From NCBI GenBank assembly GCA_035525055.1, contig DATLEZ010000133.1, positions 35,943 through 99,942 on the forward strand: 64,000 nt of DNA, given 5' to 3'. The notes under the pieces are model-generated. The model saw only the letters and a list, made by a program, of their open reading frames with translations. It was not told where the DNA came from and did not search any database. Made by a program: the position numbers and the translations under genes. Below are positions 1,756 through 44,013 of this stretch, piece by piece. This DNA is from Acidimicrobiia bacterium. Its GTDB lineage: Bacteria > Actinomycetota > Acidimicrobiia > Spongiisociales > ZC4RG35. Within the stretch, counting starts at the first letter, position 1; each line of letters opens with the position of its first letter.

Positions 1756-1775
1756 GTCGTCGCTTCGCTCCTCCC

Positions 1776-1806
1776 GTTATGCGTTATGCGTCGCACCACG
1801 CACCAC
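1776..1806. repeat. Two adjacent tandem heptamer pairs (GTTATGC x2, GCACCAC x2) in the ilvB-ilvN spacer
   Basis: Read directly: gttatgc gttatgc gtc gcaccac gcaccac. It is followed by the small hairpin gctcc-gaa-ggagc, which carries the ilvN SD. Confidence 0.8.
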
Positions 1807-3358: not shown

Positions 3359-3366
3359 GCAAAGCA

Positions 3367-3381
3367 GACGGAAGACGGAAG
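3367..3381 (+). repeat. (GACGGAA)x2 heptamer repeat, located in the loop of an AGCAGAC/GTCTGCT hairpin after ilvC
   Basis: Read directly. The stem is 3363-3369 / 3389-3395. This is the complement-type partner of the CTTCCGA array 60 nt downstream. Confidence 0.85.
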
Positions 3382-3444
3382 TGATCCTGTCTGCTGGCGG
3401 GCTACTGGCGCTTTGATGGCCGGGCGGCGATAAGCCGACTCGGC

Positions 3445-3479
3445 CTTCCGACTTCCGACTTCCGACTTCCGACTTCCGA
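3445..3479 (+). repeat. (CTTCCGA)x5 perfect tandem heptamer array abutting the leuA RBS
   Basis: Five perfect 7-nt units read directly. GGAG (3482-3485) and the leuA ATG (3493) follow immediately. Confidence 0.9.
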
Positions 3480-3492
3480 CTGGAGCACCTTC

Positions 3493-4995
3493 ATGAATGA
3501 CCGCATAACTATCTTCGATACCACTCTTCGGGACGGGGAACAGGCCCCGGGGATCGCCTTGACACCCGATGAGAAAGTCACGATCGCTCATCAGCTGGCC
3601 AAGCTGCGGGTAGACGTCCTGGAGGCAGGCTTCGCCGCCTCCTCCCCCGGCGACTTCGAGGCCGTCTCGCGTATCGCCGCCGGTGTCCGAGGGCCGGTAA
3701 TCGCCTCGTTGGCCCGGGCCCATCCCGACGACATCGACAAGGCGCACGACGCGCTGAAGTCGGCTGATCGCTATCGAATCCACGTCTTCATGTCGACGTC
3801 GGCGATCCATATGGAGAAGATGCTCCGGCTCACTCCCGATGAGGTGCTGAAGGCATCGATCGAAGGGGTGCGACGAGCCCGCGGCTACACCGACGACGTA
3901 GAGTTCTCACCCCAGGACGCCACCCGATCCGATCCTGACTTCATGATCGCCGTTTGCAGGGCGGCGGTGGAGGCGGGGGCTACCACTATCAACATCCCCG
4001 ACACCGTTGGGTTCGCCACACCTATCGAATTCGCCGAACTCCTCAAGCGGGTCTTCAAGGAGGTGCGGGGGGACCGCGAGGACGTGATCATGTCCGTGCA
4101 CTGTCACAACGACCTCGGCTTGGCGGTGGCCAACTCCCTCGCGTCTCTAGCGGCCGGAGCCCGTCAAATCGAAGGCGCGATCAACGGCATCGGTGAGCGG
4201 GCAGGCAATACCTCAATCGAGGAGGTGGTCATGGCGATCAAGACCCGCCAGGACGTATATGGGGTCGATCTCGGGGTCGACACCACCCAGCTGTATGACA
4301 CCTCCCGCCTGGTGGCGCGTTTGACCGGCTATCCGGTCCAGTACAACAAGGCTGTCGTCGGTCGCAATGCGTTCGCCCACGAGTCCGGCATCCACCAGCA
4401 CGGAGTGCTCAGGGACAAGGAGACCTACGAAATCATGGATGCGGCGGCCGTCGGCCAGCAAGCCGCCCAGATCGTCCTCGGCAAGCACTCGGGACGGGCC
4501 GGCTTCCTCGACGCCCTCGACAAGATGGGCATCACCCTCGAAGAGGACGCCTTCACCCGCGCCTTCGAGCGCTTCAAGCAACTGGCGGATCGCAAGATCC
4601 AGATCGGCGAGGACGAGGTAAGAGCGATCGTGGAAGACCAGACCGGGGAGTCCACGGAGAAGGTCAAGATGGTCAGCCTCCACGTTGCCGGAGGCAACGA
4701 GGTCACGCCGACTGCCACAGTGAAGGTGATCAAGGATGGCGTCGAACAGACGTACATTGGCCAGGGGGACGGCATGGTGCATGCCACCTTCGCCGCGCTG
4801 CGGCTTGCCTTCGAGACGGAGGCGAGGTTGATCGACTACCGGGTGGTACCGGTCACGTCGGGGGCAGATGCCATGGCGGAGGTCAACGTGGTAGTCAGGG
4901 TCGGCGATCGCACCTTTGCCGGACACTCGCTGAATACCGATGTCGTCGAGGGATCCGCCGAGGCGTTTGCGAACGCGTTGAATAAAGCCGGCTGA
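3493..4995 (+). CDS. leuA: 2-isopropylmalate synthase (short LeuA/CimA-type; citramalate synthase not excluded)
   Basis: 500-aa ORF with 'IFDTTLRDGEQAPG', 'HCHNDLGLAVANSLA', 'ERAGN' and 'HESGIHQ' motifs plus a C-terminal LeuA regulatory domain. Confidence 0.88.
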   Translation: MNDRITIFDTTLRDGEQAPGIALTPDEKVTIAHQLAKLRVDVLEAGFAASSPGDFEAVSRIAAGVRGPVIASLARAHPDDIDKAHDALKSADRYRIHVFMSTSAIHMEKMLRLTPDEVLKASIEGVRRARGYTDDVEFSPQDATRSDPDFMIAVCRAAVEAGATTINIPDTVGFATPIEFAELLKRVFKEVRGDREDVIMSVHCHNDLGLAVANSLASLAAGARQIEGAINGIGERAGNTSIEEVVMAIKTRQDVYGVDLGVDTTQLYDTSRLVARLTGYPVQYNKAVVGRNAFAHESGIHQHGVLRDKETYEIMDAAAVGQQAAQIVLGKHSGRAGFLDALDKMGITLEEDAFTRAFERFKQLADRKIQIGEDEVRAIVEDQTGESTEKVKMVSLHVAGGNEVTPTATVKVIKDGVEQTYIGQGDGMVHATFAALRLAFETEARLIDYRVVPVTSGADAMAEVNVVVRVGDRTFAGHSLNTDVVEGSAEAFANALNKAG

Positions 4996-5003
4996 TTGAG
5001 GAA

Positions 5004-5053
5004 CGCGATCCGCTATCCGCTAGAACCCCGATTCTGGCGGATCGCGGATCGCG
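5004..5053. terminator. 17-bp stem hairpin whose arms are tandem GATCCGC duplications (leuA terminator candidate)
   Basis: The arm cgcgatccgctatccgc (5004-5020) pairs with gcggatcgcggatcgcg (5037-5053) with one mismatch and a 16-nt loop. There is no clear T-tract. Confidence 0.6.
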
Positions 5054-5134
5054 AACTCCCAAGTTTGCTTCGTATCCAGCCCAGAGCTGACAAGGTAATG
5101 TTCCTCGCCACCGTGCCCGCTCGCGAGCAGATCT

Positions 5135-6442: not shown

Positions 6443-7719
6443 ACTTTGGTGCCCTGATGTGGATGCTGTTCCTGCTGGTCGCCAACGGATTCTTCGTCGC
6501 GGCCGAGTTCGCCTTCACCGCCGCCCGCAAGGAAGTAATCGAGAAGATCGGTACCAGGCCCGCCAAGGCGGCCCTGGGAGCAATGAGGGAGCTGTCCAAT
6601 ACTTTGGCCGGTGCACAGCTAGGGATCACACTGGCCACCCTGCTGCTCGGTTTCGTAGCCGAACCTTCGGTGGCACGCCTGCTCGAGACCTTGTTCGGAT
6701 GGCTGCCGATCCCCTCCTCCGTCCTTCACACGATCGCCCTTGTCATAGCAATCCTGATCGTCGTCTTCCTGCACATGGTCATCGGGGAGATGGCCCCGAA
6801 GAACATCGCCATCGCCAACCCCGAAAGGCTTGCCCTGTGGCTGGCCATTCCGTGGCGGACCTACATGACCGTGTTCCGGCCCCTGGTCTTCGTTCTCAAC
6901 AGCATTGCCAACCTCATCCTAAGAATCTTCGGGGTCGAACCCCGCGACGAACTCGAGACCGTCCACACGGCCGAAGACCTGGCGACAATCATTTCCGCCG
7001 GACGCCAGGAGGGCGTGATCGAGGAGTTCGCCAGCAAGCTGTTGGCCGGGGCGATTCTTTTCTCGGAACGGGCCGCTGCCGAAGTGATGGTCCCTCGCCC
7101 CGACATCGTCGCCCTGCCGATGTCGGCCACCTCGGCCGACCTCGAACGAGTGGTCACCGACGAAGGCTTCTCACGAATACCGATTTTCCACCAGGACATC
7201 GACGACATTGTCGGGTTCGTCCACGCCAAAGACCTGCTCTCGATCCCCGACGAGAAGTACAACGAGCCGATCGACCCCATCCTGATCCGACCATTGATGG
7301 TGGCACCGGAGTCGGCGCCGGTACGACCACTTCTCGCGGAGATGCAGCAAACCGGCCGCCATCTCGCTCTGATCATCGACGAGCACGGTGGAGCCGCCGG
7401 TTTGTTGAGCCTCGAAGACATTGTCGAGGAGCTGGTCGGCGAGATCCGCGACGAATACGACGAAGGAGAAGCAACCATACGGCGAATCGGCGAAGCCGCC
7501 TGGTACTACGTCCCCGGCTCAGCCCGACCCGATCAGCTCCGCAGCCAGGTCGGCATCAAGCTCCCCGAAGGAGAGTACGAGACCGTGGGGGGCTTCGTCA
7601 TGGACCGCCTCGGCCGGATCCCCCGCCGAGGCGATCGACTGGAGTTCGATGGCTGGGTCATGAGAGTCCGCCGGATGGAAGGTCGCCGCGTGGCCGAGGT
7701 GGAACTGTTGAAGCGGTGA
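6439..7719 (+). CDS. CNNM/CorC-HlyC family transporter, tandem paralog
   Basis: 426 aa with 'LLVANGFFVAAEFAF', a CBS pair and a C-terminal CorC_HlyC domain. ATGA start/stop overlap with the upstream paralog. Confidence 0.9.
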   Translation: MNFGALMWMLFLLVANGFFVAAEFAFTAARKEVIEKIGTRPAKAALGAMRELSNTLAGAQLGITLATLLLGFVAEPSVARLLETLFGWLPIPSSVLHTIALVIAILIVVFLHMVIGEMAPKNIAIANPERLALWLAIPWRTYMTVFRPLVFVLNSIANLILRIFGVEPRDELETVHTAEDLATIISAGRQEGVIEEFASKLLAGAILFSERAAAEVMVPRPDIVALPMSATSADLERVVTDEGFSRIPIFHQDIDDIVGFVHAKDLLSIPDEKYNEPIDPILIRPLMVAPESAPVRPLLAEMQQTGRHLALIIDEHGGAAGLLSLEDIVEELVGEIRDEYDEGEATIRRIGEAAWYYVPGSARPDQLRSQVGIKLPEGEYETVGGFVMDRLGRIPRRGDRLEFDGWVMRVRRMEGRRVAEVELLKR

Positions 7720-7720
7720 G

Positions 7721-7860
7721 GAGCGTGGTGCGGGGTACGTGGTACGTGCAGATCGCAAGCGGTTCGAAGTTTGAGGTTTGGGGTCCGAGGTTTTGACCTT
7801 CAAAGTTCGAACCTGTGCCTCGATCCTTCCTGAACGTACCACGTACCCCGTACCACGCTC
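7721..7860. terminator. Very long nested hairpin filling the entire convergent spacer (bidirectional terminator candidate)
   Basis: The outer arms 7721-7747 and 7834-7860 are 27 nt long and complementary apart from one G:T. They are built from GGTACGT-type tandem units. An imperfect inner hairpin pairs 7761-7776 with 7797-7813. The arms start directly after both stop codons. Confidence 0.7.
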
Positions 7861-9771
7861 TTAGATCTCCACCGGGATGCCGATTTCTATGACTCGGTCT
7901 ACCGGGAGCTTGAAGTAGTCGGCGGCACTGCGGGCATTGCGGTGCATGAAATTGAACAGGCGTTCGCGGAATCCGTTGATACCTTCGGCCGGGTTTGAGA
8001 TCACATGCTCCTTGCCAAGGAAGTAGGTCGTGTGGAGCGGGTCAAAGGCCACCTCGGCCATCATCTGCCGAAGTTCGGTCGGGACGTCCGGCGCCTCCAT
8101 GAATCCATAGCGGAGTATCACCTGATAGAAACGGCTCCCGAGGTGTTCTACGTCGTCGCGGCGAGCCCTCGGCACGCGGGGCATGTCCGACGTGATGACA
8201 GCGAGGAAGACCACCGACTCGTGGACCGCGTGGTTGTGGCGCAGGTTGGCCAGGAAAGCTGGAGGAACGTTGCCCGGATTAGGGAACAGGTAGACAGCGG
8301 TTCCCTCGATGCGAGGAACCTGGGTGCGGGCCAGACTGGCGATCATCGCCTTCATCGGTTGGTGAGCCCGCTTGAGCTTGAACGACAACAGGCGCCTTCC
8401 CGTCCGCCAGGTCGTCATCACGTAGAAGACCAGCGCTGCCGCCACCAAAGGAAACCATCCGCCATGTGGAATCTTGATGAGGTTGGCAGCAAGGAAGGTG
8501 AGGTCGATGACCAGGAACAGCCCGATTAACGCGACCAGCCTGCGGCGACTCCATCGCCAGTGTTCGGCAGCAAACACACCGATCATCACGCTGGTAATGA
8601 TCATTGTGGCCGTAACCGCGATGCCGTAGGCGCCGGCCAGGTTGGCCGAATTGCCGAAACCCCATACCAGGCCCACACACGCCGCCAGCAGTAACCAGTT
8701 GACGAGTGGCAAATAGACCTGACCATGGGACGCCGCCGACGTGTGGCGAACCTCGAGGCGAGGGGTGAATCCAAGCTGGATCGCCTGATGGGTGAGCGAG
8801 AACACTCCCGATATCAATGCCTGCGACGCGATCACGGTGGCGATGGTCGCCAGGCCGACTAGCGGATAAATTGCCCACTCCGGAGCCAACAGGAAGAATG
8901 GGCTTCTGACCGCCGCGGGATCGGCCAGCAACAGGGCGCCCTGGCCGAAGTAGTTGAGTAGCAAGGCAGGAAGCACCACTGCGAACCAACCCCGCTTGAT
9001 CGGGGCTGCTCCGAAGTGGCCCAGGTCCGCATAGAGCGCCTCTCCTCCGGTCACCACCAGGACCACACCACCTAGGGCAATGAAAGCGCGCGAAGTGAAC
9101 TCGACGAAGAACCTGACGGCATAGACCGGGTTGACCGCCGCCAGAACCGACGGATGATCGATGACGTGGACGATGCCAAGCAGGGCCAGCACAGCAAACC
9201 ACACGACCATCACCGGTCCGAAGAAACGGCCGACCACCTCGCTCCCGCGTCGTTGAATGGAAAAGAGCCCCACCAGGATCGCGATCGCCGTTGGCACGAC
9301 GAACCTCGAGAGGCCGGGTGCCGCGACCTCCACTCCTTCGACAGCAGACAGCACCGAAATCGCTGGCGTGATAGCGCCGTCTCCGTAGAGCAAGGCCGCT
9401 CCGAATAGCCCGGCCAGGACCAGGCGGTTGCGTCGGCGTCGAGCTTCCTCGGTGGGCGTTACCAGAGCGGTGAGAGCGAGGATGCCACCCTCGCCGTGGT
9501 TATCCGCCCGCAACACCACCGTGACGTACTTGATCGTGATGATCACGACCAGCGACCAGAAGATCAGCGAGAGCACACCGAGGATCGATGAACGAGTGAC
9601 CGGCACCCGGTGAATTTCGGCGAATGTCTCCCGTATCGAATAGAGCGGACTTGTGCCGATGTCGCCGTAGACGATGCCGAGGGCTCCGATTGTCAGCGGC
9701 AACATTCGCTGGACCGGGCGCCTGTACGAACTCCCGGTCACCTTGGGATCTGGCAGTCGGGAGTCAGGCAT
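7861..9771 (-). CDS. kup: KUP/HAK/KT potassium uptake transporter
   Basis: '[16 protein letters not shown]' signature, about 12 TM segments and a cytoplasmic C-terminal domain. The start is placed at ATG 9771 (GGAAG 4 nt upstream). The upstream ATG at 9891 would overlap the leuB start and adds low-complexity sequence. Confidence 0.9.
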
Positions 9772-9884
9772 CTTGCTTCCGTAAGAACCGTGAAGGTTGT
9801 CGGAGGACGGTACCCGACGCGGGCGTCCTACCTGGGAGGACTGACCGTCCGGGGAGTCGGACGGGGTTCGTACACTCCCCGGCC

Positions 9885-10940
9885 ATGACATATCGATTGG
9901 CCGTCATTGGCGGCGACGGAGTTGGCCCCGAGGTCACTGACCAGGCACTCAAGGCAATTCGGGCGGCCGGGGGCCAATTCGGGTTCGAAATCACCACCGA
10001 GGACTATGACCTCGGGGGAAGGAGGTTCCTGACCACCGGTGAGGTGCTTCCGGCTTCGGTCCAGGAAGAACTCAGCAGGCATGACGCCATCCTGCTTGGA
10101 GCGGTTGGCACTCCTGACGTACCCCCGGGCGTCCTCGAACGAGGTCTTCTCCTGAAGTTGCGATTCGACTTCGACCTGTACATCAATTTGCGACCGGTCA
10201 GGCTCTATCCCGGTGTCCCGACTCCGATCGCGGGTCTCACCCCGGACCGTTGCGATCTGGTGGTGATCCGTGAGAACACCGAGGGCCTCTACGTAGGGGC
10301 AGGAGGGATTGCCCGCCGCGGAACTCCCCACGAGATCGCGACCCAGGAGTCGATCAACACAAGGTTCGGAGCCGAGCGAGCATGTCGGTTTGCGTTCGAG
10401 CAGGCTGTCGGCCGGCGCCGGAAGCTGACCCTTTGCCATAAGACCAACGTCCTCACGTTTGCTGCGGACCTGTGGCAACGAACCGTTCTCGAGGTCGCAG
10501 CCGACTACCCCGGCGTAGCAGTCGACTACGTCCACGTTGACGCGGCCTGCCTCTATCTGGTCCAGTCCCCCGAACGTTTCGACGTGATCGTGACCGACAA
10601 CCTGTTCGGCGACATCATCACCGACCTCGGCGCCGCGGTGCAGGGCGGACTGGGGCTGGCGGCGTCTGGCAACCTCAACCCCGACCGCACCTTTCCCTCC
10701 ATGTTCGAACCGGTTCACGGCTCAGCTCCCGACATTGCCGGCAAAGGCTGGGCCAATCCGGTAGCGGCGGTCCTCTCGGCCTCGATGTGCCTCACCCACC
10801 TTGGTGAAATCGCTGCTGGCCGGGCGGTTGAGGAGGCGGCGGTCTCGGTCCTCCCGGAGCTGAAGACGATGGGGGGTCCCGACATGGGCATGTCGACGTC
10901 CGAGATCGGCGACCTAATCGCAGCGAGGATCAGCAAGTAG
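9885..10940 (+). CDS. leuB: 3-isopropylmalate dehydrogenase
   Basis: '[17 protein letters not shown]', '[13 protein letters not shown]' and '[14 protein letters not shown]' motifs. This is an internal ATG of the 9624 ORF. Confidence 0.93.
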
Positions 10941-12594: not shown

Positions 12595-12720
12595 GTCGGA
12601 CCGTTCTTTGGCGCCACAGCGTCGGTCCTGACCTTCTTTGGCGCCACAGCTTCGCCGGCGACGCCCACGCGCCAAAGAAGGAGAAAAGCGACGCCCACGG
12701 GCCAAAGAAAGCGAACCGGG
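12595..12720. repeat. 2 direct + 2 inverted copies of a TTCTTTGGCGCC-type motif (tricorn terminator / DUF559 promoter region)
   Basis: ttctttggcgccacagc occurs at 12604-12620 and 12634-12650. The inverted copies are gcgccaaagaagg at 12669-12681 and ggccaaagaaagc at 12700-12712. The flanking gcgacgcccacg is also duplicated. Confidence 0.8.
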
Positions 12721-12726
12721 ACGGAG

Positions 12727-15700
12727 CTAACGCAGTCTTGGGGGCTTTACCGAGGGGCGGTCGCCGAAGTCGGGAACCAATGGTGGCGAGGTCTCGATGA
12801 TCGAGATGAGTTCGGCTATTCCACGCTCGAGCTGGGGGTCGTCACCGCGGGCGTAGTCCTGGGGCCGGTTGATGACTTCGATGTCGGGCACCGTGCCGAA
12901 GTTCTCAACTGCGTAACCGACATCGGTGAACCAGTGGCCGAACTCCGGCTGGGTGGTCACGGTCCCGTCGACCAGCGACTGTTGGGGCCAAATTCCCACG
13001 ACTCCTCCCCAGGTGCGGACGCCGATCAGGGGTCCCAGGCCGAGCATCTTGAACGTATGGGAAAAGATGTCCCCGTCGGAGCCGGCGTTCTCATTGGTCA
13101 GACACACCATCGGCCCGGCCGGCGAATCGTTCGGAACCGCATGCGGCAGCCTCCAGCGAGTGACCTGGTAGCCGATCCGCCTTCGCACCAGCTTCTCGAT
13201 CAAGAGCTGGCTGACGTTGCCGCCTCGATTGAAACGAACGTCGATCACCAGACCCGGCAAGTCGACCGAGGACTTCCAGTATCGGTGAAACTCCGCGAAG
13301 CCCGAAGGCCCCATGTCCGGGATGTGGATATACCCGGCCTGTCCCCCGGTCCTCTCGGCGACTACCGCCCGATTGTTTTCGACCCAGTCCCGATACCGGA
13401 GGGCGTACTCGTCCGCCAGCGGGGCGATGGTGACCCGGCGTGCGGCCTTGCGTCCGGAAGCGACACTGAGGGTTACGGCCTGACCGGCCCGCTCCACCAG
13501 CAACGCCTGAGGGGAGACGACTTCCCTGGTCTCCCTTCCATCTACGGCGACGATCCGATCACCCACGGCGACGCCAGTCCCGGGCGCGGCCAGCGGTGAC
13601 GCAGCCTTCTGATCCCAGACGTCGCCCGCAGGGATGGCAGTGATCCGCCACGCACCGCGATTCCACTCGACGTCGGCCCCCAGATGGCCCTGAGTCCAGA
13701 CCGGTGGCGGGCGGTAGTCCCCCCCGAGTTCGTAAGCATGCGAGGTGCCCAGCTCCCCCTGCATCTCCCACAGGAGATCGGAAAACTCGGCCCGACTGGC
13801 CACCCGATCGACGAGTTCGAGGTATCGCTCCCGGATCCCGATCCAATCGACCCCGCCCATGTCTTCCCACCAGTAGTGGTCTCGTTGCAGGCGCCAGGCC
13901 TCTTCGAACATCTGGCGCCACTCGGCGGAGGGGTTGACCTCGACCCGAATACGGGTGAGGTCGACAAGCCCGGTTTCCCGGCCCGGCTTGTCGTTAGGGT
14001 TCTTGTCGTCCTTCCAACCCACCGGGACTACTCGCAACGCGGCCTTGGTTCTGATTGCCAGCACCTTGCCGTCGGCCGAAAGGGTGAACCCGGACACGCC
14101 GTCGGCTACGACCTCGACCTTGTCGGTGGCAAAGTCCCAACTTTCGAGACGTCCCATCGGGCCGTCCGACTCCTTCACCCCGAGGATTCCGACGACCGGC
14201 TGGGATTGGATGTATGTGCGCCCTTTCCCTGCCCTGATCCTGGAGTAGGCCGCGGGCGGCACCGGAAACGCCTGGACCCGCTCGGCGATGCCTTCGAGGT
14301 CGATCTCGGTCGTGACGGACACGGGCTCACCACTGGCAGGCGTGCCCGCAGCAGGAGCACCCGGGGTGTCGGGCGGCGCCGGCGGACCGGGGGGGCCCGG
14401 AGGTCGGGGATCACGGGCCATCACCGAAAACGGCGACCGGGCATCGGCTTTGAGCGGGATCAACATCGCAAGGGCCGCTCGCGGAAAGCCGTAGTCGTGA
14501 AAGTGGAGATCGGGCACAGGATCAAAGACCCGGGCCGAGAGAAAAGCCAGATAACGGCCCTCGGGATCGAAGCTGGGAGCCCAGTCGTCGAAGTCGGGCC
14601 GGCCGATTTGATGGGTATCGCCCGTACGAGTGTCGTGGAGGAAGAGGTTGGTGGTGGTGCGACTCACCGCCGCGGCGAAGGCCAGCCAGTTCCCGTCGGG
14701 CGACCAGGCGGTGCCAGCGATCCACGAGTAAGTGCTTCGGTGAATCTGCTCGACGGTTCCCCGACCGACATCCAACAGCAGAACCTCATGGCGATGGTTG
14801 GTGACCGCCACCAGGTCCCCTCCGCCCGGTGCCGGGTCGATGGTCCGGACTCTCCCGAGGTCCCCCTGGATGACCTTCTCTCTCTGACGCCGGACCACCT
14901 CTCCCCCGTCGGCCCGGCGCAAGGCAATCGCCTCCTCACCGGTCTCGTCGGTCACGGTCACGATCCGCTGCCCGTCGCTCAGCCACGAGGTCAGACGCTG
15001 GCGGGCGGACGACACCGGTCCGTGTCGCGCGGGCGCACCCTCCCACAGGGCCATCGTGTAGGCGCCACCACGGGCGGTGACCGCCAGCGAATGGCCTTGA
15101 GGATGAAGATCGATCGATTCGACGAATCGACCAGGCGAGTGGAACCGACGCTGGCGCTGGGGACGCGATGAGGGCAGCGAAACGGTCAATCTCGTGGTGG
15201 CCTCGGCGCGGGGATCGAACAGCCAGAGGTCGGCCCCGCAGTGGTAGATGGCCCGGCGTCCATCGGTCGATGCGAAACGGGCGTAGAAATCGCGGTGCCG
15301 GGTGTGTCGAGTGAGAGCCGTGCCGGCCGAGGTCACCGAGTAGATGTTGCCGACACCTTCGTGATCGGACAGGAAGTAGACCCTGGCCCCGATCCACATC
15401 GGGTCAGCCAGGTTCCCCGCCAACCGGACCAGCTCGACGAATTCTCCGTCACCTGCTCGATCGATCCAGAGGGATCCGGTTCGTCCGCCCCGGTAACGCT
15501 TCCAGCGGGCAGGATCGAAGGAGTTGCGGCCGATCACCACACCGGGCCCGTTTCGCTGGAAAGACACGGACCGTGACGGTCCCCAGCCCAGAGACTGAGG
15601 TCCTGGCCCGTCCACCGGGACCTCCCATAAATGACCCCAACCCTCGAAGGGTTGCCTGTGATCGCTGGTGACGATGACTCGTGAGCCATCGGGAGACCAG

Positions 15701-24317: not shown

Positions 24318-26387
24318 ATGAGATTCGTCGTGAGGAAGGGCACCGACCCTGTTGCTCGCGCCGACACCACGATCCTCAAGGCCCTGGGTCTGCCGTTCGG
24401 AGGTGTTCTCAAAGTAGGGCGTACCCACTTCCTCGTGCAGGGAGGCGACACCCCCGAATCGACCGCCCTCGAACTCGGGCCTATCACCCTGGCCAACGCC
24501 CAGACGAGCGAAGGGCAATCAATTGACGCGGTCCGGGCCGTCCTCGGTCCGGCCGAGGTGGTTGTCATCGACGTTGAAAACCTCGAGGTCGACCCCAAGC
24601 TTCTGGTCCGGGGCCTCCAGGGTCGCCCCATGTCGAACGGCGACCGGGTCGAAGTGGCCGGCTCCTACCTTTCCCGCCCGGAACCGTTCGCTTTTGCGGT
24701 CAACCAGGTCGACCCGGCGGGCGCCGGCCTGATCGGAGCCGGCACTCGATTTGTCTCGAGGAGCGAAGAGTCGACTTCGAGCCTCAAGCCCGAAGCCTCA
24801 AGCCCCAAGCCCCAAGCCTCAAGCCTCAAGCCAGAGACGTCGCGATCCGAACCGGATGTACCAGCTGGCCCCACAACTGCCCAGGCCCTCCTCGCCGGCC
24901 TCGACGCCGAGCAGGACCTGCTTACCGGCTGGCTATCGCTTCTGACCTCGCCCGACAACCTCCCGGCCACCTGGGGGCTTCCGAGAGTCGCGGGTGTCCT
25001 GCTGGAGGGACCTCATGGCTGCGGGAAGTCCGAACTCGTTGCGGCCTCGGCGGCCGAGTCCGGTGCGCGGGTCCACGAAGTCCTGGTCGACCAGGTCTTC
25101 AAGCCGGACCGTCTCCTCGATTTGCTCGAAGCCGCGGTGAAGTCGAGCAGTGGACCAACCGTCATCTTCGTTGACCGGCTCGAAGCCGTCGCCGGCGAGG
25201 AAGGGCTGGCGCCTTTCAAGACTCAGGTCGGCGCGGTGCTCCGCTGGTTTCTCGATGCAGTTTCGGAGAAGATCGGCCTGGCGTGCGTGCTGGGCGTAAC
25301 CTCCCGATCCAACCTCGACCCGGCGCTAGCCCAGAGCCCCCTGCTCCCCCGATCACTCTCGATTCCGCCTCCCGACCTGAACCGTCGACGGCTTCTGTTC
25401 GAAGCCGCCCTGACCCTGGTCCCCACCGAAGAAATCGACTACGACCTTCTAGCCGCTCGATCGGCGGGCTTCAGCGGGGCCGACGTCGTTGCCTCGGTCA
25501 TACACGCCTCGACCCGGCTCGCCCGATCGGCCCGTTCGGGTCACCCCGGAAAGCTGACCACCGAAGACATCATGGAAGCCGTGAAGGAGACAACGCCGTC
25601 GCTGGGCTCGATCTCACTCGGGGAGATGCCCAACTATGGCTTCGACAGGGTCGCCAACCTCAACGAAGTGAAGCAGCGGCTGATCGAAGCCGTTGTGTGG
25701 CCAGTCACCGAGCCTGATCGCTTCAAGTCGATGGGGATCGACCCGCCACGCGGCATCCTTCTATACGGACCGCCCGGGACCGGCAAGACATTCGTAATCC
25801 GCGCCCTGGCCCACGAAGCTGGTGCCGCCTTCTTTCCCGTCAAGGGCGCCGAGTTGTTGGACAAGTACGTGGGTGAGTCGGAGCGCGGTGTCCGGGAGGT
25901 GTTCGCGCGTGCCAGGGCGGCCGCCCCGTCGATCATCTTCTTCGACGAGATCGACGCACTCGCACCGGTCAGGGGTCGCTCCACCACCAACGTCACCGAC
26001 TCCGTCGTAGCTGCCCTTCTGACCGAGATGGACGGCATCACCGATCGGGGCAACGTAGCAGTGATCGGAGCGACCAACCGGGCCGACCTCATCGATCCGG
26101 CTTTGCTTCGGGCCGGGCGATTCGAAACTCAGATCGAGCTCGGCCTTCCCGATCCCAAGGCCCGCCGGGCACTGATCGACCTGTCCGATGTGCCTTTTGC
26201 CCCCGAGGTCGACAAGGAGAAACTGGCGGACGTCACCGAAGGCATGTCGATGGCCGATCTCTCCGGGGTGCTCCGCGAGGCGGCCCTGGCGGCCTTGCGA
26301 GCGGACCGCAACGCCAAGCAGGTGAGCTGGGAGCACTTGATTGGGGCCATCGAGCGCTGGCAACGAAGCCAGGCCGCGGCCTCATAA
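24318..26387 (+). CDS. Cdc48/p97-like double-AAA ATPase (Cpa-like)
   Basis: N-domain, degenerate D1 ('LLEGPHGCGKSEL') and canonical D2 ('LLYGPPGTGKTF...IIFFDEIDALAP...ATNRADLIDPALLRAGRF'). A low-complexity insert 'SLKPEASSPKPQASSLKPE' is encoded by tandem repeats at 24780-24835. Confidence 0.85.
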   Translation: MRFVVRKGTDPVARADTTILKALGLPFGGVLKVGRTHFLVQGGDTPESTALELGPITLANAQTSEGQSIDAVRAVLGPAEVVVIDVENLEVDPKLLVRGLQGRPMSNGDRVEVAGSYLSRPEPFAFAVNQVDPAGAGLIGAGTRFVSRSEESTSSLKPEASSPKPQASSLKPETSRSEPDVPAGPTTAQALLAGLDAEQDLLTGWLSLLTSPDNLPATWGLPRVAGVLLEGPHGCGKSELVAASAAESGARVHEVLVDQVFKPDRLLDLLEAAVKSSSGPTVIFVDRLEAVAGEEGLAPFKTQVGAVLRWFLDAVSEKIGLACVLGVTSRSNLDPALAQSPLLPRSLSIPPPDLNRRRLLFEAALTLVPTEEIDYDLLAARSAGFSGADVVASVIHASTRLARSARSGHPGKLTTEDIMEAVKETTPSLGSISLGEMPNYGFDRVANLNEVKQRLIEAVVWPVTEPDRFKSMGIDPPRGILLYGPPGTGKTFVIRALAHEAGAAFFPVKGAELLDKYVGESERGVREVFARARAAAPSIIFFDEIDALAPVRGRSTTNVTDSVVAALLTEMDGITDRGNVAVIGATNRADLIDPALLRAGRFETQIELGLPDPKARRALIDLSDVPFAPEVDKEKLADVTEGMSMADLSGVLREAALAALRADRNAKQVSWEHLIGAIERWQRSQAAAS

Positions 26388-34879: not shown

Positions 34880-34900
34880 TACAATCGAACACATGTTCGA
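34880..34900 (+). promoter_or_regulatory. -10 TACAAT immediately followed by perfect-arm LexA/SOS-type palindrome TCGAAC-ACAT-GTTCGA overlapping the start codon
   Basis: TACAAT is at 34880-34885 and the palindrome at 34885-34900. The ATG of the HNH gene (34893) lies in the palindrome spacer, which implies a leaderless mRNA. Confidence 0.7.
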
Positions 34901-36035
34901 GAGTTGGGACGGGAAGAACTGGGGAGAGAAGGTCGACGAGTTGGAGCGCCGGGTTCTCGCCAAGGAGGCGGAGATCTCCCGGCTTCGAGCCGAACAGGCC
35001 ACCGACCTGCAGATCCTCGACCAACTCCAGGTCGATCTCGGTGACGGCGACCGGTGCATGGACGAATGGGTTCAGGCCCACCTCGACGTGTCCCATCAGA
35101 CCGCCGCCCGACTGTTGCAAGTCGCCAGATCGAGCGATCGTGCCACCGTCGAGAAGATGAAGGCCGGGCTCTGGGGACTCGACCGGGCGTCTCTCTTGCT
35201 TCGCCTCGCGCAGGCCGGGGCCATCGCCGAGCAAGTAGCGGACGCAGCCGACAACTATTCGCTCGGCCGCATCTACGGGTTGATCCTGGAACTCAAAGAA
35301 ATCTCACCACTCCAGGAGCAGGCTTCCTTCGAAGATCGGTACCTGGTGATTCAACCCAACCTCGACTCCTCGATGTACAAGTTGTGGGGCCAGATCCACG
35401 GCGTCGACGGCCAGATCGTCGACGAGGTACTCCGCAAACGAGCCTCCACCTTTCCCAACATCCCCGACCAGTCCCAAGGCCAACTACTGGCCGACGCGCT
35501 CACCGATGTGTGCCTCGACAGCCTGACCGGTGGATCCGAGAGCGAGCAACCCGGCCGGCCCGTCGTAGTCGCCGAAGTCTTCGTAGACGCCACCGTGGCC
35601 GCCCCGACCCAAGGAGAAGCCGGCGCCACCACCAGCAGCGGCCTCCGTGTCGGACCCAACACCCTGGCCGAGATCCTCTGCAACGGCAGCGCTCGGGTCA
35701 TCTACAGCGACTGCAACGGCCCCTTCGCGGTTTCCCACCGAACCGAGACGATCTCCCCGGCAATCCGAGCGTTCGTACTGAAGAGAGACCAAGGACGATG
35801 CTCCATCGAGGGATGCGGAAGCCGTCATCGGCTGCAACCTCACCACATCAAGGAACAGCACGACGACATCGACCACGATCCGGACAACCTGATCACTCTC
35901 TGCTGGTACCACCACCACGTGGCGATACTTCAACTCGGCTTCACCATCGATCCCTATAGCCCACCCCACCGCCGACGACTCATCGGATGGCGACCCATCA
36001 ACGGCCCCCCTGTAAGACTCGCAAAATCCGCGTGA
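34893..36035 (+). CDS. DUF222 + HNH endonuclease (REP13E12-like family)
   Basis: 380 aa. The C-terminal 'RDQGRCSIEGCGSRHRLQPHHIKEQHDDIDHDPDNLITLCWYHHHVAI' is an HNH motif. The N-terminal region is helical and DUF222-like. Confidence 0.85.
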   Translation: MFESWDGKNWGEKVDELERRVLAKEAEISRLRAEQATDLQILDQLQVDLGDGDRCMDEWVQAHLDVSHQTAARLLQVARSSDRATVEKMKAGLWGLDRASLLLRLAQAGAIAEQVADAADNYSLGRIYGLILELKEISPLQEQASFEDRYLVIQPNLDSSMYKLWGQIHGVDGQIVDEVLRKRASTFPNIPDQSQGQLLADALTDVCLDSLTGGSESEQPGRPVVVAEVFVDATVAAPTQGEAGATTSSGLRVGPNTLAEILCNGSARVIYSDCNGPFAVSHRTETISPAIRAFVLKRDQGRCSIEGCGSRHRLQPHHIKEQHDDIDHDPDNLITLCWYHHHVAILQLGFTIDPYSPPHRRRLIGWRPINGPPVRLAKSA

Positions 36036-39610: not shown

Positions 39611-39770
39611 TCGCTCGACAAGACCGGGACGTCGATATCCGGATCGATCGTCAGCCGGGGGTCATCGGCGAAGCTCTTTGCCAGTAGATGGTGCTTACCC
39701 CGATTCGCATGCTTCTGGCGCGGAGGATCGACCCCAGAGAAGCAGAACTCCGCGCCAAAATGATCCTCGT

Positions 39771-39805
39771 CTTCCGTCTTCCGTCTTCCGTCTTCCGTCT
39801 TTCGT
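39771..39805 (+). repeat. (CTTCCGT)x4 perfect + one degenerate (CTTTCGT) tandem heptamer array
   Basis: Read directly. It ends 3 nt before the HAD gene stop codon, in a convergent spacer. Confidence 0.9.
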
Positions 39806-39808
39806 CGT

Positions 39809-40405
39809 CTAGATCTCGTCCAGACTGTCGACGATCCGATCAGCCGCCATTAGAACCTCGTCGGCGAAGTGTCCCCTTCGCACCGCCACCACGCTCATCC
39901 CGGCGGCGCGGGCTGCAATCACACCGGTTGGACTGTCCTCGAATACGACGCAATCGCCGGGATTGATCCCGAGCAGCGTGGCGACCCGCAAGTAGACGTC
40001 AGGAGCCGGCTTCGGCTCGGCCACTTCGTCGCCGGCCACCGTCACATCGAATAGGGGCCTGACCCCGGCTGCTGAAAGGACCACTTCGAGGCGCCAGCGG
40101 TTGCTGTTGGAAGCGACTCCGATCGGCACCGCCACACGTTCGACCAACGCAATCGCATCCGGGAACGCGTTGAGGCCCTGGCCGGCGATCAGCCGCATCT
40201 CTTCCTCGGCGGCGTTGAGGACTTCTTCGACTCCAGCCCCGACCTGGGCCGCGAACGCCACCGCGAGGGCGCGGTCAGTGGTCCCGACGAATCCCGCGAA
40301 AGTGACAGCATCGATGTGGTAGTCGAAGCGCGCCAGGGCTGCCCGCCACGCCTCGGCGGAAGCTGACTCGGAGTCGACCAGGACTCCGTCGCAGTCGAAT
40401 ATCAC
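39809..40405 (-). CDS. HAD-superfamily hydrolase (beta-phosphoglucomutase-like subfamily IA)
   Basis: 'MIFDCDGVLVDSE', 'VASNS', 'KPAPDVY' and 'VVFEDSPTG' motifs. Confidence 0.85.
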   Translation of the reverse strand: MIFDCDGVLVDSESASAEAWRAALARFDYHIDAVTFAGFVGTTDRALAVAFAAQVGAGVEEVLNAAEEEMRLIAGQGLNAFPDAIALVERVAVPIGVASNSNRWRLEVVLSAAGVRPLFDVTVAGDEVAEPKPAPDVYLRVATLLGINPGDCVVFEDSPTGVIAARAAGMSVVAVRRGHFADEVLMAADRIVDSLDEI

Positions 40406-40422
40406 TGCCTTCAGGAGCGCCC

Positions 40423-41880
40423 CTAGGCAGACAGCTTCGTGCGAAGCAGTTGGTTGACCAGCTTTGGATCGGCCTTGCCGCCCGTAGATCTCATCACCAG
40501 CCCGACCAGGAAACCGAGGACTTTCTCCTCCCCCGAGCGGAAGCGGACGATCGCATCGGGATTGACCGCGAGCACCTCATCGACGGCTGCCGCGATGAGA
40601 CCCTGGTCGGAGACCTGGAGCAGATCCAATACTGCCGCCGCTTCAGCCGGAGACCCCTGTCCCGCCAACACTGCACCGAGAACCTCTTTCCCCGCCGACG
40701 AGGAGAGCTTGCCCTCCGTGATCATGCCCACCAGTTCGGCCAGGTGACCGGCCGTCAACGGAGTCTCAGCAACTGAGCTGCCGGTCCGACGAAGGGCAGC
40801 CGTTAGTTCGCCGGTGACCCAGTTGGCCGTCGTCGGGGCATCCGTTCCCAGCTCCACCGTCTCTTTGAACAGGTGGCGAAGGCTCGGCTCCGCCGATGAC
40901 AGCACCGCCACGGCGTGGGCATCGAGTCCGAGACCGGCATAACGGCGGCGACGATCAGCCGGGAGCTCGGGCATCGCCGACTGCACCTGGTTCAACAGCT
41001 CCGCTGAGATTTCGACCGGCACCAGGTCGGGCTCGATGAAGTATCGGTAGTCGGAGCTTCCCTCCTTGCTGCGCATAGACTGGGTCATCCCGGCCTCTTC
41101 ATCCCAGTGCCGGGTTTCCTGAACGATCCTCTCCCCCGCTTCGATAGCCGAGATCTGACGCGTGATTTCAGAAGCCACAGCGCGTTCGAGAGATCGAAAT
41201 GAGTTCATGTTCTTGATCTCGACCTTGGTCCCCAGCTCGGTCGTACCGATCGGCCGCACCGAGACATTGGCGTCGAAACGGATCGAACCTTCCTCCATCC
41301 GGGCGTCGGAGACGTCAAGCTCGGCCACTACTGCGCGAAGTTCCTGGGCATAGGCGCGGGCCTGCGGGGCCGATCTGATGTCCGGTCGCGAGACCACCTC
41401 GACCAGTGGCACGCCGGACCGGTTGAAATCGAGGAGCGTCGACGTAGCCGAGTGAATCCGTCCGCCGAGGCCCTCGTGGAGGCTCTTACCGGTGTCCTCC
41501 TCCATATGGGCGCGCTCGATCCCCACGCGAAACTCTTCGCCTTCGACTTCGACATCGAGCCATCCATCCGAGCAGATGGGAAGGTCGAACTGCGAGATCT
41601 GATAATTCTTGGGAAGGTCGGCGTAGAAGTAGTTCTTTCGATGAAAGACCGAGCGAGGTGAGATCTCGCAATGAAATGCCAGCCCTATTTTCGTGATCCA
41701 CTCGATGGCGGTGGCGTTGATGACTGGCAACGCCCCGGGCAAGCCCAGGCAGGTCGGGCACACGTTGGTGTTGGGCTCCTCACCGAACCCGACCGCACAC
41801 GAGCAGAACATCTTGGATGCGGTTTTGAGCTCGACATGTACCTCAATACCGATGACCGGTTCCCAGACAGTGGAGGTCAT
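40423..41880 (-). CDS. gatB: Asp/Glu-tRNA amidotransferase subunit B
   Basis: '[13 protein letters not shown]', 'SKMFCSC', '[11 protein letters not shown]' and a C-terminal YqeY-like domain. Confidence 0.96.
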
Positions 41881-43343
41881 GCCGCCACCTCGGCCAGCGC
41901 CGGTCGCGAGGTGAACGCCGCCAGTCGCTCAACGGCATTGGCAACCTGGAAGAGCATCGCCTCTCCCAGCGCGGGTGCCATCACCTGGAATCCGATCGGC
42001 AACCCCCCGTCGTCGAGCCCGATCGGCACAGAGATTGCCGGGTGACCCGAGAGGTTCGACGGAATCGTGCATACGTCGGACAGGTACATCGCCAGCGGAT
42101 CCTGGGTCTTGGCCCCCAATTCGAAAGCGGTGGTTGGGCTGGTCGGCGAGATCAGCACGTCGACTCGCTCATACGCGGCGTTCAACTCGGCGATGATCTT
42201 GCTCCGCACCTTCTGCGCCTGCCCGTAGAAGGCGTCGTAATAACCGGCTGAAAGGGCGTAGGTTCCAAGCAGGATTCTGCGGGTTACCTCCGGCCCGAAA
42301 CCTTCGGCCCGGGTCCTAGCCATCATTTCCTCAACTGTCTCACCTTTGACGCGCTGTCCGTATCGAACCCCGTCGAATCGCGCCAGATTGGAAGAGCACT
42401 CGGCCGGAGCGATCAGGTAGTAGGCCGAGAGGGCAACATCGAAGCTCGGTAGAGACACCTCTAGGACTTCAGCGCCCGACGCCGCCAGCTTCTCGACCAT
42501 CGCATTCGTGGCGGCAACTACGGCAGGCTCGTAGCCGTCACCGCCGAACTCCTTCACCAATCCGATTCGCACACCGGAGACACCCTCGTCGAGTGAGGAC
42601 CGAACTTCCGGAACCGGACCCGGATAGGACGTGCCGTCTTTGGGATCGTGACCGGAGACAACCTCGAAGAGGCTCAACGCGTCGGCCACCGATCTGGCGA
42701 ACGGCCCGATCTGATCGAGGCTCGAAGCGAACGCCACAAGACCGAATCTGCTGACCAGCCCGTACGTGGGCTTGAAACCGACCACTCCACACAGAGAGGC
42801 GGGCTGGCGGATCGACCCGCCCGTATCCGACCCGAAAGCTCCCAACGCCGACCCGACGGCCACCGCTGCGGCCGAGCCCCCCGAACTGCCACCGGGTACC
42901 CGGGAGGGATCCCACGGGTTGCGGGTGGGGCCGAAGGCCGAGTTCTCAGTTGAAGAGCCCATGGCGAACTCGTCGAGGTTGGTCTTGCCGACGATCACGG
43001 CTCCGGCCTTCCGCAGCCGCGCCACGGCGGTGGCGTCGTAGGGCGGCCGATAGCCAGCAAGAATCTGCGATCCGCAAGACGTCGGCAAGCCTTTGGTGCA
43101 GAAATTGTCCTTAACCGCGATAGGAATCCCATGGAGCAGACCGAGGTCACGACTTTCGGCGAACCGGGTATCGGCCGCCTCGGCCTGAGCCCGGGCTCCG
43201 TCGTGGTCGATCACGAGATAGCAGTGCAGTTCCGCCTCGGTCAACGAGGCGCGCTCGAGGACCGAATCCAAAAGGTCGACAGCAGAGATTTCCCCCGACC
43301 GGAGCTTTGCACCGGCCTCGGCAATCGTTAAGTCGGAGGTCAT
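41877..43343 (-). CDS. gatA: Asp/Glu-tRNA amidotransferase subunit A
   Basis: Amidase signature '[12 protein letters not shown]' and 'KDNFCTKG'. 4-nt overlaps with gatB and gatC. Confidence 0.96.
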
Positions 43344-43630
43344 CTGCTGTCCAGCGCTGGCGGCACCACTATGTAGCCATCCTTGACCTCGGGCGCCTGG
43401 GCTAGCACCTCTTCGCGATCGAGCGACGGCTCCACCACATCGGGACGAAACCGACTGGCCAGGTTGAGCGGGTGAGAAGTCGGCTCGAGGTCAACCGTAT
43501 CCAGTTCCTGGACCCGGGCGGCGTGTTCGAGAATCACGCCGAGTTGGCTCCGGTAGCCCTCCAACTCCTCATCGGTGAGGGCGAGACGAGCCAGGCGGGC
43601 AACGTGGGCGATATCGATGTCGACAGGCAT
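43340..43630 (-). CDS. gatC: Asp/Glu-tRNA amidotransferase subunit C
   Basis: 96 aa with '[28 protein letters not shown]'. Confidence 0.93.
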
Positions 43631-43664
43631 GAGGGACCGGAAGTGTAGGAACCGGACAGAAGGT

Positions 43665-43698
43665 GGAAGACGGTGGGCGGAAGACGGAAGACGGAAGG
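43665..43698 (+). repeat. GACGGAA-type heptamer array (2 perfect + 2-3 degenerate units) in the gatC / membrane-protein divergent spacer
   Basis: Read directly: ggaagacggtgggcggaagacggaagacggaagg. It is the reverse complement of the CTTCCGT array at 39771. Confidence 0.85.
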
Positions 43699-43719
43699 CA
43701 GTGGTTACCGTCTCGGGCG

Positions 43720-44013
43720 ATGAATTCGGTATCCACCCGGCGGCTGGTCGCAGTAATAGCGGTCGCCCTAACAGTCCCGGGGGCCTTTATTTACTGGCAG
43801 GGGAACGAAATCTCCGGGGGGATTCTGCTTCGATCGGGCCTGGTCCTGGGCGCCAGCTGGCTGGCGTGGCCCGCTCTAGTGAAGCTCAATCCCAGGTGGC
43901 TAGTCCCTGCTCTCGCCCTATTGGCGTTTGCCGTCACCAGACCAGGCCTGCTTATCTGGCTCGTGCCGGCGCTGTTGGTGTTTGCCCTCTTGCGGCGCCC
44001 GAAGGTCAAATAG
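43720..44013 (+). CDS. Small membrane protein (3 TM), hypothetical
   Basis: An internal ATG gives 'MNSVSTRRLVAVIAVALTVPGAF...'. The rest is hydrophobic segments with a basic C-terminus. Confidence 0.45.
   Translation: MNSVSTRRLVAVIAVALTVPGAFIYWQGNEISGGILLRSGLVLGASWLAWPALVKLNPRWLVPALALLAFAVTRPGLLIWLVPALLVFALLRRPKVK

Follow-up and report, generated by a model that had tools for sequence, protein, structure and literature searches.

Two inverted heptamer arrays at the ends of the gat operon

The window analysed here, a 64-kb stretch of DNA (about 63% GC) from contig DATLEZ010000133.1 of an Acidimicrobiia bacterium, contained a gatC-gatA-gatB-HAD operon on the minus strand (39809..43630), and a tandem array of a 7-nt unit was found at each end of this operon. 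The closest relatives of the window DNA were uncultured Acidimicrobiia. Pfam analysis assigned GatC to 43340-43630, GatA to 41877-43343, GatB to 40423-41880, and the HAD protein to 39809-40405, all on the minus strand. The same gene order was found in the fetched loci L003, L004, L006, L007, L012, L203, L204, and L210 (L-numbers are labels of fetched loci). The genes flanking the bracketed segment encoded an ABC ATPase on one side and a small membrane protein and an M23 peptidase on the other, as judged by Pfam.

The downstream array occupied 39768..39806 and read as (CTTCCGT)n on the plus strand, where Tandem Repeats Finder (TRF) called CGTCTTC x5.6 with 96% matches. It consisted of four perfect units and additional degenerate ones. 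On the operon strand (minus), the sequence was TAG ACGACGAA followed by AGACGGA x4, such that the array adjoined the HAD stop codon or began within it. The upstream array was less regular. TRF called GGAAGAC x4.7 with 76% matches at 43665-43697 of the plus strand, with two to three perfect GACGGAA units, and degenerate units reached to about 43647, which placed the whole array (43647..43697, minus strand) roughly 17-67 nt 5' of the gatC ATG (43630). Its operon-strand sequence was CCTTCCGT CTTCCGT CTTCCGC CCACCGT CTTCCAC CTTCTGT. A repeat search joined the two arrays as inverted arms (39771-39810 and 43658-43697) of 40 nt with 83% complementarity, 3847 nt apart, with a core of 20 nt at 95% complementarity.

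The arrays were far from a chance occurrence. The 14-mer CTTCCGTCTTCCGT, which corresponds to two units, had 12 matches in the window at up to two mismatches, compared with 0.81 expected, and none of 100 shuffles reached 12. Expansion of a generally common word was rejected, as CTTCCG and CGGAAG occurred 26 and 21 times outside the arrays and the median for hexamers of the same composition was 22. Both array ends were reproduced exactly in two independent Logan contigs of run SRR8556377, one of which broke inside the downstream array, and the Logan contig L202 carried a copy of the upstream array identical to that of the window. No match to a known RNA family was found anywhere in the window at the gathering score of Rfam 15. 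The bracket described in an earlier sequence-only reading of this DNA was therefore real: both arrays were present, non-random, and complementary, and enclosed gatC-gatA-gatB-HAD, with the perfect four-unit array at the HAD stop codon and the GACGGAA array 5' of the gatC start that it had pointed out.

A putative -10 box of gatC, TACACT (43641..43646, minus strand), was located 11 nt 5' of the ATG without a Shine-Dalgarno sequence, which would leave the mRNA leaderless or with a leader of about 4 nt. A TAnnnT hexamer close to the start codon is the signature of actinobacterial leaderless or near-leaderless promoters. Such a hexamer, ending 6-11 nt before the gatC start and again without a Shine-Dalgarno sequence, was present in 23 of 23 Acidimicrobiia gatC loci, and the chance of this was about 5% per locus. 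On the other side of the spacer, a gene for a membrane protein of 97 aa (43720..44013, plus strand), also called in L202, was transcribed divergently and followed by an M23 peptidase/SLH gene. Its putative -10 box, TACCGT (43706..43711, plus strand), ended 8 nt before the ATG at 43720. The block ACGGTAA(A/C)C was kept in the window, L203, L204-206, L207, L209, and L213 and altered in L208 and L210/L211. The upstream array filled the 59 bp that separated the two divergent -10 boxes. This distance was 36-65 bp across close relatives (87-94% GatA identity) and contained no conserved -35 element. In the region 43631-43719 of the window and its equivalents in L203-L213, both gatC and the 97-aa gene looked leaderless, with -10 boxes 6-11 nt from the starts.

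No sense promoter further upstream of gatC was visible in the 89-bp divergent spacer. A scan for consensus sigma-70 promoters and U-tract terminators around the operon found none and was uninformative for a GC-rich actinobacterium; the promoter assignment rests on the comparative conservation of the -10 boxes instead. Because a -10 box was conserved between the array and the start codon and no Shine-Dalgarno sequence was present, the upstream array probably lies outside the gatC mRNA, in an untranscribed stretch that separates two divergent leaderless promoters, and the gatC mRNA would be leaderless and free of the array. At the other end of the operon, RNA folding predicted a GC-rich hairpin (GGCGCGGAG ... 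CTCCGCGCC) at 39717..39756, between HAD and the convergent ABC-ATPase gene. This hairpin, located outside the bracket and 3' of the downstream array, is a probable terminator without a U-tract at a place where the consensus terminator scan was blank. The downstream array is probably part of the 3' untranslated region (UTR), because it was located between the HAD stop codon and this hairpin, and it had no local pairing partner in the RNA fold of the operon 3' region (z = -0.3). The two arrays thus probably never meet in one RNA. A few kilobases upstream of the gat region, a gene with a DUF222 domain was found at 34893-36035; in Actinobacteria, this family is frequently associated with HNH endonuclease repeat genes.

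The gat locus in close relatives

A search with GatA gave relatives at 82-94% protein identity, and eight lineages were readable. Both operon ends were visible in five lineages. The identities given below are GatA protein identities to the window, which itself (100%) had about 6 units of CTTCCGT upstream of gatC and about 5 units of ACGGAAG after the HAD stop codon. The closest relative, L209 (94%), had no upstream array but one single CTGGCGT, and L208 (93%) had none; the HAD end was not on the contig in either case. L203 (92%) carried (CGTGTGA) x2.5 upstream and nothing after the HAD stop codon. In L204-206 (92%), about 5 units of CTGGCGT were found upstream, and (ACGCCAG) x3-4 followed the HAD stop codon. 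L210/211 (89%) had CTTCCGT CTTCCGA CTTCC upstream and a 36-nt spacer with one GGAAG after HAD. No upstream array was present in L213 (89%), whose contig ended inside HAD, and L207 (87%) had an array at neither end. The more distant L002 (78%) had (CCTACTG) x2.4 upstream, and its HAD end was not on the contig. A matched pair was therefore present in two of the five lineages with both ends readable, while L207 lacked both arrays and L203 and L210 had a short array upstream but no clean partner downstream. The window and L204 were not sisters in a gatA nucleotide tree, and an array-less sister stood beside each of them, which indicates that the arrays are quickly gained and lost. In L009 (about 750-905), a direct repeat of about 50 nt (ccaccgtggtggtggggggctgcacgcggg...) was found upstream of gatC in place of heptamers.

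The arrays of L204-206 formed inverted arms of 24 nt with 96% complementarity, 3867 nt apart. Compared in register with the window, their unit was changed at two adjacent positions, and the change was complementary at both ends of the operon. The predicted duplexes between the two arrays were strong within each lineage (-75.6 and -92.3 kcal/mol, about 4-5 standard deviations below shuffles) and weaker across lineages (-46.5 and -63.0 kcal/mol).

This covariation (CTTCCGT/ACGGAAG in the window, CTGGCGT/ACGCCAG at the same two positions in L204-206), together with the stronger duplexes within lineages, would fit two arrays that function as a pair and whose complementarity is maintained by selection, either through pairing of the 5' UTR and 3' UTR of a longer operon mRNA or through an R-loop-type feedback in which the 3'-UTR RNA hybridises to the promoter-spacer DNA of its own operon. 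Several observations make such a pair unlikely. The upstream array was located 5' of the TACACT box, whose TAnnnT hexamer was found at all 23 gatC loci, and the 89-bp spacer offered no further sense promoter, which argues against the mRNA 5'-3' pairing proposed in the sequence-only reading. Matched arrays occurred in two of the five lineages only, the upstream array was absent in the closest relative, and the essential housekeeping operon works without arrays in sister lineages. Among the properties to be expected of mRNA end pairing, compensatory complementarity was found, in a single independent comparison, but a transcript shared by both arrays is improbable, and the pair was not present in most operon-bearing relatives. 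Conversely, two of the three signs of neutral slippage that had been named beforehand were seen at least in part, and the bracket was not conserved in relatives.

The strains L204 and L205 were 99.7% identical over 3.9 kb, and the length of their downstream arrays differed by exactly one 7-nt unit, which supported the expectation that the heptamers are prone to slippage and vary in copy number between strains. Each array also contained one substitution, so 2 of the 11 substitutions and the only internal indel fell within about 70 nt. The upstream array had an equal length in L204, L205, and L206. These results bear on a possible contingency function, in which the upstream array, as a phase-variable repeat similar to that of hmw1A, would tune gatCAB or its divergent neighbour by copy number. 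The location of the array in a promoter region and the copy-number change at the gat locus are consistent with this, as is the absence of MutS/MutL from Actinobacteria (PMC3176237). But the copy number changed in the downstream array and not in the upstream one, which was constant in three samples, the genes concerned are housekeeping genes, and arrays of 3-6 units are short compared with the 11-24 of hmw1A, so that we consider a contingency function very unlikely.

In all relatives examined, the operon kept its orientation with respect to the genes on both sides, and the divergent layout of gatC and its upstream neighbour was old, being present at 69-78% GatA identity. An origin of the bracket by inversion was rejected on account of this old arrangement and because an inversion would yield direct repeats. 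The segment between HAD and the ABC-ATPase gene varied: in L203 (13569-15393) and L207 (13568-15387), it contained a MarR-like gene of 153 aa together with an S41 peptidase gene. Of these, L204 retained nothing but the 3' end of the MarR-like gene, and the window had neither gene. The downstream array was not the junction of this deletion, as in L204 it was located between the HAD stop codon and this 3' end, and the window contained no gene remnant.

Heptamer arrays in other spacers and in metagenome contigs

The gat arrays were not the only heptamers in the window. Tandem-repeat runs were counted 11 times at period 7, compared with 0-6 times at each of the periods 5, 6, and 8-10, and 10 of the 11 runs fell within the non-coding 8.5% of the window, in 6 of about 32 intergenic spacers. 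The only run inside a gene (24780-24832, AGCCYCA x7.6) had a true period of 21 nt in frame and encoded an S/P/K-rich linker (SSLKPEASSPKPQASSLKPE) of a CDC48-like AAA ATPase. As had been noticed before, the CTTCCGT family was restricted to intergenic DNA in the window, the intragenic run being a different repeat, and it recurred upstream of leuA. The CTTCCGN unit formed four arrays in three spacers, up to 40 kb apart. The exact unit ACGGAAG was found at the upstream and downstream gat sites and on the ilvC side of the ilvC-leuA spacer, 36 kb away, where its leuA-side partner was TCGGAAG.

The spacers differed in their units, and in the first 8 kb each spacer had its own. The ilvC-leuA arrays (3366..3481, plus strand) were composed of (AGACGGA) x2.3 after the ilvC stop codon (3366-3381) and (CTTCCGA) x5.3 before the leuA Shine-Dalgarno sequence (3445-3481). 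They were 64 nt apart with 6 of 7 bases paired per unit, enclosed a conserved loop, and folded into a hairpin (3355-3495, -57.3 kcal/mol, z = -3.4). Directly after the leuA stop codon, (ATCCGCT)2 and (GCGGATC)2 formed a hairpin with a 6-nt loop (5004..5053, plus strand; fold 4990-5075, -46.9 kcal/mol, z = -7.1). The convergent CNNM-kup spacer was filled by a hairpin of (GGTACGT)n and (ACGTACC)n with 31-nt arms of 94% complementarity (7721..7860; fold 7715-7866, -89.9 kcal/mol, z = -10.7). Local inverted array pairs with strong hairpin folds were thus present in three spacers of the window. The ilvB-ilvN spacer (1756-1828) carried (CGTTATG) x2.4 and (CGCACCA) x2 at 1775..1806 (plus strand). Directly after these two arrays, the hairpin CCGCTCC GAA GGAGCGG (about 1808-1824) held the ilvN Shine-Dalgarno sequence, and an upstream CGCTCCTCC in the same spacer could compete for pairing with it. 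Another double hairpin at 12604-12709, in the spacer between AbiEi-like and tricorn-protease genes, was not based on heptamers: two direct copies of TTCTTTGGCGCCACAGC were followed by two inverted copies (GCGACGCCCACGNGCCAAAGAA), with 58-nt arms of 74% complementarity.

The ilvC-leuA spacer showed that both arms of a pair can be replaced. L212 (96% LeuA identity) had (CAGTAGG)n ... (CCTACTG)n where the window had (AGACGGA)n ... (CTTCCGA)n, and the central loop was homologous. In register, two positions were compensatorily changed in every unit of both arms. The L212 spacer (9845-10003) folded into a single long hairpin (-82 kcal/mol, z = -6.4). The 3' arm of the ilvC-leuA hairpin adjoined the leuA Shine-Dalgarno sequence (CTGGAGC), and the predicted hairpin could be an intercistronic stabiliser or attenuator. 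CAGTAGG arrays were also present in the ilvB-ilvN and CNNM-kup spacers of L212, which lacked the heptamer hairpin after leuA, (ATCCGCT)2/(GCGGATC)2. In addition, the CNNM-kup spacer of L212 contained an ACGCCAG ... CTGGCGT pair, which is the unit of L204, and CCTACTG is the unit of L002 upstream of gatC. This spacer was 409 nt long in L212 and 141 nt in the window. At 14162-14502 of L212, (CAGTAGG) x4.4 and (ACGCCGG/ACGCCAG) x~5 were followed by a candidate 70-aa open reading frame and (CTGGCGT) x3.9, the inverted pair enclosing about 250 nt; the candidate frame (14242-14454), for a membrane protein, had a weak coding signal. From the recurrence of the L204, L212, and L002 units at corresponding spacers, it follows that a small library of related units (xxGxxAG: ACGGAAG, ACGCCAG, CAGTAGG) fills the same spacers in different lineages. 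In the window and in L212, one or two units were expanded at several spacers of the genome.

The local pairs bear on the functional reading of the gat arrays in both directions. They behaved like selected stems, since at ilvC-leuA the arms were swapped with complementarity kept and the loop conserved, but the arm order of the gat pair was opposite to that of the local hairpin pairs. The wrong arm order also led us to reject the idea that the operon had been inserted into the loop of an earlier local hairpin.

The concerted change of the unit at both operon ends could alternatively be explained if the arrays are recombination partners at the DNA level, homogenised by conversion, template switching, or inversion, with the segment bounded by the -10 box and the stop codon perhaps invertible. 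The 40-nt arms with 83% complementarity and a near-perfect core of 20-24 nt in both lineages are suited to this. A core of that size comes close to the shortest length that supports RecA-dependent exchange. The arrays also gathered substitutions and indels faster than their flanks, as in the L204-L205 comparison. However, the constant operon orientation in every relative examined and the absence of an adjacent recombinase gene from the Pfam annotation of the flanks speak against an invertible segment. Pairwise homogenisation is disfavoured because the ilvC-leuA pair, 64 nt apart, was less well matched (6/7 per unit) than the 3.85-kb pair, the opposite of a distance-dependent process. We consider recombination between the partners to be quite unlikely.

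The occurrence of one unit beside two amino-acid or tRNA-related operons in the window would also fit operator sites for a heptamer-recognising DNA- or RNA-binding regulator that coordinates ilvC-leuA and gatCAB-HAD. The upstream array overlapped the -35 region of two promoters, and heptamer direct repeats serve SARP regulators in actinomycetes (PMC5930380). But the SARP operators have spacers of 3-4 nt and a period of 10-11 bp (PMC5930380), whereas the units here were contiguous with a 7-bp period. Moreover, the unit differed between close relatives at one site and several unrelated units occurred in one genome, so that a protein would have to co-evolve with each of them, and the conserved property was complementarity, not sequence. 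Regulator binding is hardly probable on these grounds. Two kinds of mobile element were rejected. A miniature inverted-repeat transposable element with heptamer termini did not fit, as the loops and flanking spacers had no second copy in the window or the fetched loci and the ilvC-leuA loop was orthologous in L212 while the arms differed. Repetitive extragenic palindromic (REP) or REPIN elements did not fit either, the loops and flanks being unique and the stems different from site to site.

Similar arrays were widespread in metagenomes. A contig scan for three CTTCCGN units matched at least 120 contigs, and the counts in this paragraph refer to the matches listed. In 90 high-GC contigs, 142 of 183 heptamer arrays were intergenic, though 86% of the DNA was coding. 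Arrays were found in 25 convergent and 11 divergent spacers, and many contigs combined several arrays that differed in unit, along with local inverted pairs. The same unit recurred kilobases apart in 15 direct and 9 inverted exact pairs. Composite blocks of several heptamer arrays were repeated 1.5-4 kb apart with their order kept in L104 (3298-4911) and L109 (242-10173); for example, the block GCAATTG...CTTGCGA at 242-387 of L109 was found again at 4324-4423. Such recurring blocks in high-GC contigs suggest that whole array blocks are copied between spacers. Among the same matches, arrays reading CGGAAG on the top strand were nearer to the left-hand gene (12:4), and those reading CTTCCG were nearer to the right-hand gene (17:10; Fisher p = 0.027). 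This test used the nearest gene with both flanks called, on pooled contigs of unnamed organisms with heuristic gene calls. As in Xanthomonas, the arrays tended to face away from the adjacent gene, here with the ACGGAAG-type strand reading outward, and this tendency was real but modest. All arrays of the CTTCCGN-type family in the window, L204, L210, L212, and L002 obeyed the outward-facing rule. A simple rule based on gene direction was rejected, as a count of every array no more than 120 nt from a gene end gave a split of about 50:50 among the matches listed.

Origin of the bracket and known heptamer families

With moderate confidence, we regard the gat arrays as two members of a dispersed, oriented, slippage-driven family of intergenic heptamers, and the bracket as a by-product. 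In this scheme, arrays would arise and turn over through replication slippage in a 7-nt register, and each genome would have a currently expanded unit, placed at several spacers. Outward-facing arrays at both ends of a transcription unit would then give an apparent inverted bracket: the operon looks bracketed because arrays of an expanded family at each end face away from the genes. Ectopic conversion or template switching are candidates for the spread of a unit and for the concerted change of partners. Any effect on expression would be limited to promoter spacing or local DNA structure at the upstream array and to 3'-UTR composition at the downstream one. The by-product reading is favoured because ACGGAAG was common to three spacers, the local ilvC-leuA pair was matched less well than the 3.85-kb pair, the bracket was absent from most relatives, and the upstream array is probably not transcribed.

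Four points weigh against it. Complementary arrays with different units at both ends were present in two non-sister lineages, and the chance of this under a by-product model, very roughly 0.05-0.25, is not comfortable. In the first 8 kb of the window, where each spacer has its own unit, one unit common to two spacers is not the default. The orientation statistic is modest and comes from pooled organisms with heuristic gene calls. Finally, the spread of a unit between sites and the orientation rule are without a known mechanism; as a speculative lead, the outward orientation is what a 3'-end extension of gene-bearing DNA would give.

A further idea, which we rate as improbable, is that partner arrays are actively coupled at distances of 6 nt, 64-100 nt, and 3.85 kb, the unit being replaced in both partners with complementarity and outward orientation kept. 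If this were true, a templated "writer" might lay the current heptamer of a genome at gene boundaries, oriented as for 3'-end extension, or a pairing function might extend across a whole operon, for example between the 3'-UTR RNA and its own promoter spacer. If the coupling proved to be general, the question of why these repeats are heptamers, oriented, and paired would become testable in comparisons of genomes within one clade. Otherwise, the bracket would be an ordinary by-product and the gat operon would need no special explanation. Heptamer repeats are abundant in several phyla and have been noticed since 1990, without an accepted origin or function. The present analysis adds a carrier lineage in Actinomycetota whose close relatives can be compared site by site, and the replacement of a unit with complementarity kept, seen locally in the ilvC-leuA hairpin and, over 3.85 kb, at the two ends of an operon.

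The heptamer element type itself was already known, and the gat and ilv-leu arrays are a new occurrence of it in Acidimicrobiia. The earlier statement that no element of this form had been described did not hold, since intergenic tandem heptamer families have been published, including inverted pairs and orientation (PMC4692102, PMC4679880, PMC2700814). The window arrays shared with the long simple sequence repeats (SSRs), the short tandemly repeated repetitive (STRR) sequences, and the Xanthomonas-type families their tandem 7-nt units, period-7 excess in intergenic DNA, recurrence at unlinked sites, inverted pairs, orientation, and variability. According to the work of Mrazek et al. 2007 cited in PMC4679880 and PMC4692102, heptanucleotide repeats predominate among the long SSRs of several prokaryotes, some Actinobacteria among them, and polymerase slippage was proposed as their origin. 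The cyanobacterial STRR and long-SSR sequences (Mazel 1990; Mrazek et al. 2007, both as cited there) are likewise non-coding heptanucleotide tandem repeats for which slippage was proposed. They differ in density and host, with 7-9 arrays per 10-13 kb in the Nostoc, Symploca, and Dapis loci compared with 6 spacers in 64 kb in the GC-rich host here. As a positive control, our period-7 scan also flagged cyanobacterial loci among the distant GatA matches.

In Beggiatoaceae (TAACTGA; MacGregor 2015, PMC4679880) and Geobacter metallireducens (GGACCGG and MTYCTGA; PMC2700814), a heptamer occurs in 2-6 copies at each of tens to hundreds of intergenic sites, in many cases immediately 5' of start codons, and a regulatory role was proposed, not shown. 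A single heptamer repeated in tandem at many intergenic sites is the common feature. However, those families have fixed single units, nearly always arranged directly and facing one way relative to the gene (169 direct sets vs 1 indirect), whereas inverted partners and unit turnover were prominent in the lineage of the window. In the hmw1A/hmw2A promoter of H. influenzae, a 7-bp repeat of 11-24 copies is located between promoter elements, and slippage changes adhesin transcription (PMC8262952). The upstream gat array is similarly a 7-bp tandem repeat in a promoter region, and copy number changes at the gat locus. The difference is that hmw1A encodes a surface adhesin with a demonstrated effect on transcription, while the arrays here have 3-6 copies and adjoin housekeeping genes. 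The local heptamer pairs also resemble REP, bacterial interspersed mosaic element (BIME), and REPIN sequences in being extragenic, between or after operon genes, with stable hairpins that could terminate transcription or shield the mRNA upstream of them. But there was no conserved palindromic unit of 20-40 nt: the stems were locus-specific heptamers and the loops were unique orthologous sequence. No gene for a REP-associated tyrosine transposase (RAYT) was seen in the annotated parts of the 64-kb window.

The closest likeness was to the intergenic heptamer families of Xanthomonas (GGGAATC) and Nostoc/Anabaena (GGGGAYT) described by Rehm et al. 2015 (PMC4692102). In these genomes, about 90% of the heptamers are intergenic, mostly in 3-6 copies, with one unit over many loci, and they are under-represented between divergent open reading frames (ORFs) and have a fixed orientation relative to ORFs. 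Xanthomonas has 70-75 nearby "convergent" inverted pairs per genome that are capable of forming stem-loops, and few are found in Nostoc. The length and sequence of the heptamers differ between Xcc and Xac, and the repeats adjoin housekeeping genes, with no function found (PMC4692102). The gat and ilv-leu arrays were likewise tandem, intergenic, and dispersed, with nearby inverted pairs, the same orientation to ORFs, and variability between relatives. They differed in that the units in the window were not G-tracts and so had no G-quadruplex potential, that several unit families coexisted within 64 kb, and that the host belongs to Acidimicrobiia (Actinomycetota). They differed further in that units were replaced between lineages with the complementarity of the partners kept, one pair being separated by 3.85 kb around an operon.

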